From the NCBI GenBank assembly GCA_029856145.1, contig JAHQWK010000019.1, positions 32,001 through 96,000 on the forward strand: a DNA stretch of 64,000 nt, in the 5' to 3' direction. Below are positions 11,879 through 48,586 of the stretch, piece after piece. The translations under genes and the position numbers were made by a program. Under the pieces are notes generated by a model that did no database searches, was not told the origin of the DNA, and worked only from the letters and a program-made list of their open reading frames with translations. Each line of letters begins with the position of its first letter. The stretch's first letter is position 1. The stretch is from Promethearchaeia archaeon (lineage in GTDB: Archaea; Asgardarchaeota; Lokiarchaeia; Sigyniarchaeales; SOKP01).

Positions 11879-12517
11879 ATGGTATTTAAAAATATTCTAA
11901 GAATAAAAGCAGCCTTACCTGAAGTTAAACATGTTGTAATGTTCTATAACAATGGTACAATTTTTCAAACTACATTTGAGCAAGAAATTAATATTCCAAA
12001 ATTAGGTGAAAATTTAGCAGAAATATTAGATCATGCTAAACGACTCTATGATATCTCTAATTATAATTTTGATAATTATAAAAAAATTATTCTTGAAACT
12101 AATGATATGTCTATTATTATTTTAAAGCTTGGTGAAGATAGTAATATTGCTCTTTTTTTTAGGAAAGAAGAAGAAAAAGAATTAAAATTGACGGCAATAA
12201 AAAGGTATATAACTAGAATTGAAGAATTAATTGATATGGATGAAAGAGAACTTGTAATACAAAATATACTGGTAAAAGAGGAAGAAATTAAACACTTAAA
12301 GGAACTACTAAGTGAAAAAGAGAAAATTGGTGAAGAATTAAAAACAGAATTAATTAATATGGAGAAAGGAAATATAGAAGGAGATAAAAGAAAAATAACT
12401 AGTGAAATAAATAGCCTTGATTTTGAATGTGAAAATTTGAGAAAGCATTTAGAAAAATCCAATAATGAAATCAAACATTTAAAAGAAAAAATAGAAAAGA
12501 GTCACAAAAAAGAATGA
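11879..12517 (+). CDS. Roadblock/longin-like domain fused to a C-terminal coiled coil
   Basis: Pattern helix, VVMFYNNGTI, long helix, IILET..IIILKLG...ALFF; E/K-rich heptads after residue about 120. Confidence 0.55.
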   Translation: MVFKNILRIKAALPEVKHVVMFYNNGTIFQTTFEQEINIPKLGENLAEILDHAKRLYDISNYNFDNYKKIILETNDMSIIILKLGEDSNIALFFRKEEEKELKLTAIKRYITRIEELIDMDERELVIQNILVKEEEIKHLKELLSEKEKIGEELKTELINMEKGNIEGDKRKITSEINSLDFECENLRKHLEKSNNEIKHLKEKIEKSHKKE

Positions 12518-45915: not shown

Positions 45916-46338
45916 GTGTCTGAAAGTGAAAGAGATTTTACTATAAAAAGCTATATAGATTATTTATCTGAAAAGAAATTAATGGGATCAAAATGTAAAG
46001 ATTGTAGTGCTATGTATGTTCCAGTCAGAAAACTATGCCCTAAATGTAATACTGCAAATATGGAATGGGTTGAAATGTCAGGGAATGGTAAACTTGCTGC
46101 CTTTACAAGTATCACAGTAGGAACGCCTTTCTTTGTAGAAAAGGGGTATGGTAGAAAAAAACCTTATTGCTTTTCAGTAATAAAACTAGACGAAGGTCCC
46201 ATGATAAGTGGGCAATTAATAGGTGTAGATGAGAGTAAACCTGACACAATTAATATTGGAATACCTGTTAAAGCAACTTTTATAGAAACTGAAATCAAGG
46301 GTGAAACAAGGGTCGATTTAGGTTTTGAGCCTATTTAA
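45916..46338 (+). CDS. DUF35 Zn-ribbon/OB-fold thiolase partner
   Basis: KCKDC...YVP.R..CPKC, SGNGKL..FT, PY....IKLDEG; GTG start 7 nt after GAGGTGA. Confidence 0.88.
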   Translation: MSESERDFTIKSYIDYLSEKKLMGSKCKDCSAMYVPVRKLCPKCNTANMEWVEMSGNGKLAAFTSITVGTPFFVEKGYGRKKPYCFSVIKLDEGPMISGQLIGVDESKPDTINIGIPVKATFIETEIKGETRVDLGFEPI

Positions 46339-46420: not shown

Positions 46421-47584
46421 ATAAAGAGATTATACAAAATCTTAATTTCTGTTGGTTTTGTTTCAATTGCTGTCTTTTCTCTTGTTTATTTGTATTTTCC
46501 TACTAGTAATCTAAATATTCAAAACTATGAAATAGATTTGCAATTTAGTGCCGATAACGCTTATAATTATACAGAAGATCAATTAGATATTGGTTTTCGG
46601 ATACCTGGAACACAAGAACGTGTGGATTGCGCTAATTATTTCATAACTAAATTTTTAGAAATAGATAGTAATTTCACATATGCTCTTCATAATTTTACAG
46701 TCTATTCAACTGATTGTCAGAATGTGTTATTCAAATTAAACGAGAATAAATCTAATATTGTAATTTTAGGAGCACATTATGATTCTAGAGCTAGAGCAAC
46801 GAAAGATTTAACAAATACATCTGCTCCAGTTCCAGGTGCTAATGATGGTGCTAGTGGAAGTGCTATTTTAATTGAATTAGCAAGAAATTTCTATATAATG
46901 AGTGAGAATCTAAGTTGTCAAATATGGTTTGTCTTTTTTGATGCCGAAGATCAAGGATATGATCTGGGACCTGGTATAACTGGATGGGGATGGTGTGAAG
47001 GTTCTCAGAAATTTGTTTCCGAAATTAATAATTTTTATGATTCAGAAACAGAAAATTTTGAGTGTATGATTTTATTGGATATGGTGGGTGGAGAAAATCT
47101 AAAATTTATTAATGAACAACATTCTACCTCTTCATTATTGGATGAATTATTTGCTATTGGAAGGAGTTTAGGTTATACTGACGAATTTCCAATAAACCCA
47201 ATCTCTGGAGAAATTGTAGATGATCACGTAGCTTTTGTAAATTTTGGTATTCCTTCTGCAGATTTAATTATCAAATTTTGGAATAGAAATCCAGATTGGC
47301 CTTACCACCATACTACTAAAGATAACCTTACCTATATCGCTAAAGAAAGTCTTGAAACTACGGGCAAAACTGTTGAGCAATTTATCTATAATAACTACAT
47401 TGATGATCAAAATAACATTTATCAGGGAAATTATCCTTGGAATCAAGATAAAAGTCTACTGAACCTAGACGTAGTAATAATCATTACTATAATTATTGTT
47501 ATTGCAGGAATTTCAATTATAATATTAATTCCGACAACAGAAGTTACAAAAAAAAACGAATTGCTTGATTATAATATAATATAA
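46421..47584 (+). CDS. M28 family peptidase / glutaminyl cyclase-like, membrane-anchored at both ends; probable ATA start
   Basis: GAHYDSR, GANDGASG, FDAED, LLDMVG, DDH..F, YHHT..D; N-terminal signal anchor IKRLYKILISVGFVSIAVFSLVYLYF lies upstream of the track start 46490. Confidence 0.85.
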   Translation: MKRLYKILISVGFVSIAVFSLVYLYFPTSNLNIQNYEIDLQFSADNAYNYTEDQLDIGFRIPGTQERVDCANYFITKFLEIDSNFTYALHNFTVYSTDCQNVLFKLNENKSNIVILGAHYDSRARATKDLTNTSAPVPGANDGASGSAILIELARNFYIMSENLSCQIWFVFFDAEDQGYDLGPGITGWGWCEGSQKFVSEINNFYDSETENFECMILLDMVGGENLKFINEQHSTSSLLDELFAIGRSLGYTDEFPINPISGEIVDDHVAFVNFGIPSADLIIKFWNRNPDWPYHHTTKDNLTYIAKESLETTGKTVEQFIYNNYIDDQNNIYQGNYPWNQDKSLLNLDVVIIITIIIVIAGISIIILIPTTEVTKKNELLDYNII

Positions 47585-48472
47585 TTATTTATGTTTTATT
47601 ATCGTTCCACACTGCTGACAGAATTTTTCTAACTGAGCTAATTTCATACCACAAAATTTACAGAAATAAAAAATTTCTTTTAGTTTTTCTTCTTTTTTAT
47701 CTGGAATTGAAGGTATTGATTTTTGTTTCGATGCTTCCAAAATTGGTGGAGTTATCTGTTTTTGAGCCGTAGAAATTACTTCTATCTTCTCTTCCTCCTT
47801 AATTAATGTTGGTGGGATTGGTTGTAGTTCTTCAGTTTTTATTTGTGATAGCTCAGAAACAGTTTCTTCAGATGGTTTTGGGTGGGTTATTTCTGAAATT
47901 TTTGGAATCATTTCTGGTTTAGGGGTAGGAACCTCTTTAATTTTTTCTTTCCATTTATCCGGAATCGATGGGTCTGTTTGTATTTTTAAAAATTCTGATG
48001 GAGAAATATCAGCCAACGGTTTTGAAGTAGTTTTTTGTTTTATTGCTTGTTTTTTAACATATTTTTCTCTCCGTTCATTATAAAATGCGAAATATTTTTT
48101 CTTAGCTTTTCTTAAACTATTTCTACTTCCACATTTTTCACAATATCTTCGATTTCTAATTGAAAATTCCCAACAATAAACGCAAATAAAAGGATGTCCT
48201 TTTAAAAAAGTCTCTACATCTGAGATATCCGACCCTAATGGAATTGGCTTTATATCTTCAGTTTTTTCTTTTTTGAGTATAAAAAAATTAAAGTCCTTTT
48301 TGTTAGCTTTTCTTAAACTATATCTAGCGCCACAACCTTCACAATATTCTCTATATGTATCGGTAAACTTCCCACATCTATGACAGATTAAAGGCTGTGT
48401 CTTTAGGAATGCTTTCCTATTTTGTATTAATGGTATATTATCTTTTGTTAAATATTTTTCATCATCAGAAAT
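47585..48472 (-). CDS. Multi-zinc-ribbon protein (two N-terminal repeats, Pro-rich linker, C-terminal zinc ribbon), 295 aa; probable ATT start
   Basis: Frame open 152 codons upstream of track start 48016: (I)SDDEKY...CHRCG...YCEGCG..SLRKA...CVYC...YCEKCG..SLRKA; C-terminal FCKFCG...FCQQCG. Confidence 0.8.
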   Translation of the reverse strand: MSDDEKYLTKDNIPLIQNRKAFLKTQPLICHRCGKFTDTYREYCEGCGARYSLRKANKKDFNFFILKKEKTEDIKPIPLGSDISDVETFLKGHPFICVYCWEFSIRNRRYCEKCGSRNSLRKAKKKYFAFYNERREKYVKKQAIKQKTTSKPLADISPSEFLKIQTDPSIPDKWKEKIKEVPTPKPEMIPKISEITHPKPSEETVSELSQIKTEELQPIPPTLIKEEEKIEVISTAQKQITPPILEASKQKSIPSIPDKKEEKLKEIFYFCKFCGMKLAQLEKFCQQCGTIIKHK

Positions 48473-48586
48473 ATTATTTTCACCTTAAAAAATTCAATTT
48501 TGCAGTAAAAATGATCTAATGGTTTGTTGTATAATTTTGAATTTAAACATTTCTATGAATTGTAATTAAGGAAATTGAAAAATCCT

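Follow-up and report, generated by a model that had tools for sequence, protein, structure and literature searches.

Initiation at AUU has been described for the infC gene of E. coli, which encodes IF3 and carries its AUU start behind a Shine-Dalgarno (SD) sequence under translational autocontrol (PMC4705826). For archaea AUG, GUG and UUG are given as start codons in the same review (PMC4705826), and the observation that the aIF1 of Sulfolobus rejects AUU in vitro (PMC4705826) counts against initiation at this codon. SD motifs are not prevalent in Prometheoarchaeum according to another review (PMC7531240). In eukaryotes initiation at near-cognate codons (CUG, GUG, ACG, AUU) is governed by the stringency of eIF1 and eIF5 (PMC4705826). 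From the Asgard archaea the tubulin gene AtubA of a Kariarchaeaceae (Heimdall-group) MAG has been described as 'likely' to have 'a rare ATT start codon' (Sci Adv 2026, PMC13394414), and in the literature searched we found no systematic account of near-cognate starts in Asgard archaea or Lokiarchaeia.

The gene analyzed here is encoded on the minus strand of a stretch of 64,000 nucleotides (the window) from an Asgard MAG (Promethearchaeota, Loki-type) that is 3.55 Mb in size, 97%-complete and has 29.9% G+C. Its frame is closed by an in-frame TAA and stays open from there for 299 codons to the TAA at 47587-47585. ATT is the fifth codon past the closing TAA and is followed by TCT GAT GAT GAA, and no ATG, GTG or TTG is present in frame between this TAA and the TTG at 48016-48014, which leaves 152 codons counted from ATT. 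The whole genome contains 2710 stop-to-stop ORFs with a length of 150 codons or more, and among them this stretch free of canonical starts ranks 7th longest, which is more than expected by chance. The initial annotation had proposed AUU initiation from this anatomy, and every coordinate that it gave, including those of the TAA and the AGGTGA, proved to be exact (Table 1). The 152 codons it had taken as coding are open and conserved as coding sequence in 20 homologs, the two CxxC..CxxC repeats it had described are both located 5' of the TTG with a third one following further downstream, and the 7-nt distance it had noted at two canonical starts recurs as AGGTGA + 7 nt + GTG at 45916 and AGGTGA + 7 nt + ATG at 11879. 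The proposal itself also gains support, as syntenic orthologs keep the ATT behind an AGGTG, and we consider it very probable that the gene is started at AUU behind an SD.

Table 1: Features of the triple zinc-ribbon locus (positions in the window) and, below them, loci of nine further genes of the same genome (G000, contig:positions) in which a Pfam domain begins 5' of the first canonical start.
Feature	Position	Strand	Evidence or remark
CDS, triple zinc-ribbon protein	47585..48472	-	open frame, Pfam DZR, homologs, synteny; 295 codons from ATT + TAA stop
ATT, proposed initiation codon	48470..48472	-	invariant in 8 aligned orthologs
Shine-Dalgarno AGGTGA, 7 nt (AAATAAT) before ATT	48480..48485	-	AGGTG invariant in 8 orthologs
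In-frame TAA closing the frame, 5 codons 5' of ATT	48485..48487	-	
TTG mini-ORF, five codons (TTG AAT TTT TTA AGG TGA), ends inside SD, out of gene frame	48480..48497	-	
Promoter-like block (AAATGTTTAAATTC.AAATTATACA), probably BRE/TATA; holds in-frame ATG 48550-48548	48528..48553	-	best-conserved intergenic stretch, 8 orthologs
First canonical start TTG, codon 153	48014..48016	-	choice of a standard gene finder
Zinc ribbon 1, residues 30-47, CxxC..CxxC	48332..48385	-	sequence, homolog alignment, AF2 model
Zinc ribbon 2, residues 97-114	48131..48184	-	sequence, homolog alignment, AF2 model
Zinc ribbon 3, residues 271-288, Pfam DZR/Zn_Ribbon_1 match	47609..47662	-	Pfam, homolog alignment
Further gene 1	C2:47503-48435	+	
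Further gene 2	C25:19716-20384	+	
Further gene 3	C28:64330-64857	-	
Further gene 4	C19:30234-32120	+	
Further gene 5	C30:66845-67207	+	
Further gene 6	C19:4609-5799	+	
Further gene 7	C26:17682-18236	+	
Further gene 8	C21:6197-6970	-	
Further gene 9	C9:283359-284930	-	

For a closer look at the start codon, the first 24 codons were aligned together with the intergenic region for eight sequences (the window, L022, L023, L024, L029, L035, L037 and L040; alignment A2). These sequences are separate MAGs or metagenome assemblies, with L030, L036 and L038 being second copies from other samples, and the syntenic orthologs share 47-61% protein identity. Both AGGTG and ATTTC, the latter combining ATT with the TC of the Ser codon, are invariant in all eight sequences, and the spacer between SD and ATT has 7 nt in seven of them and 6 nt in L022. 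ATG is not found at this codon in any ortholog; all eight sequences of A2 have ATT, and so does the ninth and more distant ortholog L025, which is also without a canonical start and has its ATT merely 3 nt past GGTGA. In five of the eight orthologs no canonical start is present 5' of the ATT that is in frame with it and not cut off from it by a stop. In-frame stops precede the ATT by five codons in the window (TAA), two in L022 (TGA), five in L029 and L030 (TGA) and one in L025 (TGA), where the stop of L022 is the SD's own TGA, which comes into frame because the spacer is 1 nt shorter. In L023 no in-frame canonical start is found back to a TAG located 14 codons 5' of the ATT, and in L040 such a start before the ATT is likewise absent. 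An open in-frame canonical codon 8-9 codons before the ATT is present in L035 and L037 (TTG) and in L024 (ATG), and the product may be longer in those species.

The indels 5' of the ATT in A2 are 1 nt long, so that the SD falls in different frames relative to the ATT, and the sole downstream indel has 3 nt. After the ATT the differences are found mostly at third codon positions (2, 1 and 6 at the first, second and third position between L023 and L024; 1, 0 and 5 between L024 and L029), and the periodicity over the first 23 codons is modest with 12/24, 7/24 and 14/23 variable columns. The invariant third base of the ATT was considered as a proof of selection and dismissed as not significant alone, as 9/23 neighbouring third positions are invariant as well. 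The TTG of 'MVQDW', at which the gene callers start four of the deposited orthologs, is replaced by TTA in L022, L025 and the window. From the upstream stops to the conserved N-terminus the ATT is the sole near-cognate codon common to all orthologs, and since no canonical alternative is conserved it is also the only start candidate that they share. Conserved coding sequence thus lies before the first canonical codon with a stop nearby, and codon and SD are conserved independently of the upstream frame. The still more distant homologs L026, L031 and L039 start at ATG and no SD was seen in front of them, which fits a weak codon that would be used only together with a strong SD.

The 16S 3' end was read from three genus relatives, where it is ..GGATCACCTCC (also written GGAUCACCUCC or ..UCACCUCC), as that of the window's own MAG was not found in the assembly. 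AGGUGA forms six base pairs with this end. The SD of the zinc-ribbon gene is thus complementary to the 16S 3' end of its relatives and located at a working distance from the ATT. Further upstream the promoter-like block has the consensus ACAAATGTTTA[A/T]ATT..AA[A/T]TTATACA in A2, is invariant or nearly so, and occurs in related forms in more distant homologs. From its likeness to the archaeal TATA consensus this block is probably a promoter. A leaderless mRNA, in which the start codon would be found at the transcript 5' end ~25-30 nt past the TATA box and without an SD, does not fit this arrangement, because the block ends ~55 nt before the ATT and an invariant SD is located between the two.

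Of the small ORFs in this leader, the TTG mini-ORF has a comparable counterpart among the orthologs in L022 only, and it is probably untranslated since no SD precedes its TTG. The spacer GGTGAAAATGCAATT of L023, L029, L030, L035 and L037 contains an out-of-frame ATG 2 nt past the SD, which in five of the eight orthologs opens a 10-codon ORF overlapping the proposed start. This ATG is probably silent, because in the genome of the window no ATG is found at spacing 0-2 at any ORF edge. No conserved RNA fold was detected in the leader (consensus of the eight orthologs -0.62 kcal/mol, no covariation 5' of the ATT), and Rfam and tRNA scans of the window gave nothing. In the window alone positions 48440-48527 (-) can fold such that the SD is buried in a hairpin (-12.9 kcal/mol, z = -2.3), which is not conserved in the orthologs.

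The encoded protein has 20 homologs with E-values down to 6e-96 and 33-60% identity, all of them from Asgard MAGs that NCBI labels as Promethearchaeota, Hermod- or Thorarchaeota. In an alignment of 16 sequences (the query and 15 homologs) 32 columns are invariant, most of which are located in the region of ribbons 1 and 2, and no or almost no variation is seen at the 12 ribbon Cys. The C-terminal ribbon matches Pfam DZR (PF12773) with 33.5 bits against a cut-off of 27.3 (residues 271-293) and also exceeds the cut-off of Zn_Ribbon_1 (PF13240), and all Pfam matches are to zinc-ribbon families. Like DZR and Zn_Ribbon_1 proteins it is built from CxxC..CxxC units, of which it has three, but unlike DZR proteins it consists of two helix-ribbon-basic-helix repeats and a long disordered linker followed by a ribbon. 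In the AF2 model (mean pLDDT 60.5) residues about 11-150 reach a pLDDT of 68-88 and form the two repeats, in each of which a short helix and a ribbon are followed by a long basic helix. The model shows residues 153-265 as disordered, and its C-terminal 25 residues make up the third ribbon. As this confidence is reached from residue ~11 on, the folded part begins well before any canonical codon. Neither a solved structure nor a named family covering the whole protein was found in Pfam, Foldseek against the PDB or the ESM Atlas; Foldseek gave no match at E <= 0.001 and generic ribbons only, the ESM Atlas gave DZR-type clusters only with scores <=0.86. Basic helices (SLRKAKKK) follow ribbons 1 and 2, and the linker of ~110 residues is acidic and proline-rich; from this composition one might guess, with low confidence, at an adaptor that binds nucleic acids or proteins.

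Within the genome collection the full-length orthologs that we found belong to the window's own genus, and in the searches run the full architecture was seen in related metagenome contigs and otherwise only in this Asgard genus. As far as these searches go, the 295-residue protein is confined to this Loki-type lineage of the Asgard archaea. At the four syntenic loci with listed genes a DAGK/YegS-like kinase, a SAM methyltransferase and the zinc-ribbon gene are co-stranded and an M28 peptidase gene converges on them, which is also the gene order of the window. Paralog-like relatives within the genus, L006 (G017:C51) and L007 (G024:C55), have an extra N-terminal domain of ~110 residues followed by one N-terminal-type ribbon and then the C-terminal ribbon, and due to this different architecture they were omitted from the start-codon comparison.

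Several other readings of the start have to be weighed against the ATT. A gene finder would pick TTG 48016, the first ATG, GTG or TTG in frame, so that a 143-residue protein with a single ribbon would remain and the frame upstream would be a decaying remnant. We regard this as very unlikely, because two ribbons with invariant Cys would be discarded, all orthologs have the 152-codon stretch open and conserved, no SD is found in front of this TTG and the codon is not conserved, with V, I or G as the aligned residue in the orthologs. It could be suspected that the ATT stems from faulty sequencing or assembly, or that an ATG has recently mutated and left an allele that is untranslated or a pseudogene, as a single T-to-G change yields ATG and as the genome is a MAG. 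The comparative data refute this and leave it hardly any probability at all: the ATT is invariant in the eight aligned sequences and L025, in at least 11 separate assemblies (NCBI MAGs, JGI, Logan contigs), which excludes a base-calling error or a dead allele, and the frame is intact and constrained in all orthologs.

A start further upstream would have to come from ATG 48550, which is in frame, with readthrough of TGA 48499-48497 and TAA 48487-48485, or from TTG 48497 with a frameshift or reinitiation. Its appeal is that the codons for 'IF.GEN' look conserved (*IF*GENN in the window vs MIFIGENA), but the likeness is one of nucleotides and not of reading frame, because the 1-nt indels upstream of the ATT shift the frame and the SD itself gives 'GE'. 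As ATG 48550 also lies inside the invariant promoter-like block with two stops after it, and as the TTG mini-ORF is restricted to the window and L022, such a start is very unlikely. Slightly more can be said for a downstream near-cognate codon, ATA 48436-48434 (residue 13) or ATA 48424-48422 (residue 17), which would turn residues 1-12 into a leader: ATA also seems to be used as a start in this genome, the protein's repeat unit (IPL..FLK..C) starts close to residue 13 and gene callers begin several orthologs at the codon adjoining residue 17. It is nevertheless improbable, as neither ATA is preceded by an SD and neither is conserved (the orthologs have AAA or GAA at residue 13 and mostly GTT at residue 17), while residues 1-12 (ISDDEKYLTKDN vs ISYDDEKFIRKD) show synonymous changes that leave the protein sequence conserved and the conserved SD is positioned for the ATT.

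We also scanned the whole genome for similar genes. In scan 1 a codon was counted if it lies 5-9 nt after GGTGA, opens at least 100 codons and has an in-frame stop at most 12 codons upstream without a canonical start in between, and for non-canonical codons also without one within 25 codons downstream. This gave 29 ATG, 13 TTG, 11 ATT, 7 ATA and 5 GTG, and as controls, with triplets that are equally or more abundant, 2 AAA, 1 AAT and no GAT. The spacing has its peak at 6 nt for TTG (9), ATT (7) and ATA (5) and is flat for the control codons; for ATG the highest peak is found at 4 nt (16), and smaller ones are seen at 6 (11) and 9 nt (9). Scan 2 examined the 5' edges of ORFs for five SD 5-mers, placed by their alignment to the anti-SD, at an aligned spacing of 5-8 and found 124 ATG, 31 TTG, 9 GTG, 13 ATT, 11 ATA, 4 CTG and 2 ATC, against controls of 4 AAA, 2 AAT, 2 TTA and 0 TTT. 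At control spacings the enrichment vanishes.

When, as an independent test, ten candidates were translated from the near-cognate codon, a Pfam domain was found to begin 5' of the first canonical start in nine of them (Table 1), with the domain onset at residue 2-33 and the first canonical start at codon 26-93. Their starts are ATT, ATA, CTG or ACG, 6-7 nt past GGTGA. Among the nine is a RagA/Arf-like GTPase that would lose its P-loop if the canonical start was used, and the clearest others are a TetR HTH, the rubredoxin domain of a rubrerythrin and an AOR N-terminal domain that covers profile positions 2-199. The remaining ones are a DsrE protein whose match starts at profile position 1, an ETF-alpha with a Fer4 domain and a CTG start, a Fer4 protein resembling HdrC that has an ACG start, a phosphodiesterase and an alpha/beta hydrolase. 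From these sequence patterns we estimate that at least about 25-30 SD-led genes of this genome start at ATT, ATA, ATC or CTG. The ATT of the zinc-ribbon gene, judged in the same way, is one case of a genome-wide habit and not a peculiarity of this gene, and the pattern points to a lineage-wide start-codon check that is relaxed or differently tuned and not to a device special to the zinc-ribbon gene. The converging M28 peptidase gene of the window (46421-47584, +) has an ATA at 46421 that sits 6 nt past GGTGA and is probably its start, which would add a hydrophobic N-terminus of 23 residues before the first canonical TTG (46490). An out-of-frame ATG (46417) is present 2 nt past the SD in the leader of this gene.

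For the zinc-ribbon gene these data suggest a model in which the mRNA would be transcribed from its own conserved promoter with a leader some tens of nucleotides long, both the promoter and the transcript start being putative. Pairing of AGGUGA with the 16S 3' end would then place the small ribosomal subunit (30S), and initiation would occur at the AUU 7 nt past the AGGUGA. The codon would presumably be read by Met-tRNAi with a tolerated mismatch at the third position, so that the N-terminus would be Met-Ser-Asp-Asp-Glu-Lys with Met as the likely first residue. Default ARAGORN on G000 found 11 tRNA genes and no tRNA-Met, with introns or gaps as the probable cause. An alternative code or stop-codon readthrough was rejected, since TAA ends the gene as well as its upstream neighbour and the stop in front of the ATT can be TGA or TAA, depending on the ortholog.

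Loss of aIF1 was also considered as a cause. PF01253 (SUI1/aIF1) was not found in the 97%-complete MAG of the window (G000), but 23/24 genus relatives have SUI1 and the miss is therefore most likely an assembly gap; with SUI1 also present in 12/16 other genomes of the order, the loss of aIF1 was dismissed. In three genus relatives (L052 in G001, L054 in G009 and L055 in G004) the frame of aIF1 itself reads TAA GAG/GAC AGY ATT AAA.. and has no ATG, GTG or TTG before the CPIC..CIC zinc knuckle, with the ATT located 8 nt past GTGAT. From this sequence context aIF1 of L052, L054 and L055 likely starts at ATT, which would parallel the AUU of infC. In the neighbouring genus (L051, L053) aIF1 has a TTG start. 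One could speculate that the AUU and AUA starts form a selected regulon that tracks start-codon stringency, which would be set by aIF1, whose own gene likely starts at ATT in the genus relatives, and that the ATT of the zinc-ribbon gene, invariant at ~50% identity, would be retained as a tunable weak start. We consider this idea possible yet rather unlikely. Eukaryotic eIF1 controls its own synthesis, and such a regulon would be the archaeal counterpart of this self-control and of the control of infC. Autoregulation of the infC type, in which the product itself controls start-codon stringency and the AUU serves as a feedback sensor, does not fit the zinc-ribbon gene, as its protein shows no likeness to aIF1, aIF2 or IF3.

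To our knowledge, standard gene finders all assume AUG, GUG and UUG as archaeal starts, and textbooks do likewise. On this genome a gene finder would give only the 143-residue tail of the zinc-ribbon protein or nothing at all. Among the deposited orthologs one is truncated by the first 29 residues, four lack about 16, and three are extended by spurious N-terminal additions. Should AUU and AUA be routine start codons in Lokiarchaeia, wrong N-termini would be expected for a few percent of the Asgard proteins in databases, and the affected ones could include proteins that are used in arguments on the origin of eukaryotes. This also raises the question of how strict aIF1 and aIF2 are towards the start codon in the closest archaeal relatives of eukaryotes.

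In summary the zinc-ribbon gene resembles infC in that a near-cognate AUU is placed by an SD and conserved between species, and, as we propose, in that its use depends on the codon strictness of initiation factors. Unlike infC, the zinc-ribbon gene does not encode an initiation factor, the archaeal fidelity factors are aIF1 and aIF2 and not IF3, and the habit spans dozens of genes and not one or two. With AtubA it shares an upstream ATT at a plausible RBS distance that restores conserved sequence; whereas AtubA is a one-gene remark in the methods from another Asgard class, here the ATT is invariant in eight orthologs and accompanied by a genome-wide pattern. As in eukaryotic near-cognate initiation, one mismatch would be accepted by the initiator tRNA and the stringency would be set by homologous factors (eIF1/aIF1), but the ribosome would be positioned by the SD in the zinc-ribbon gene, unlike in eukaryotes, where scanning and the Kozak context serve this role. 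Thus, initiation at AUU as such was already known, and what appears to be new from the comparison of these genomes is that an Asgard lineage uses it throughout the genome in a conserved and SD-dependent way.
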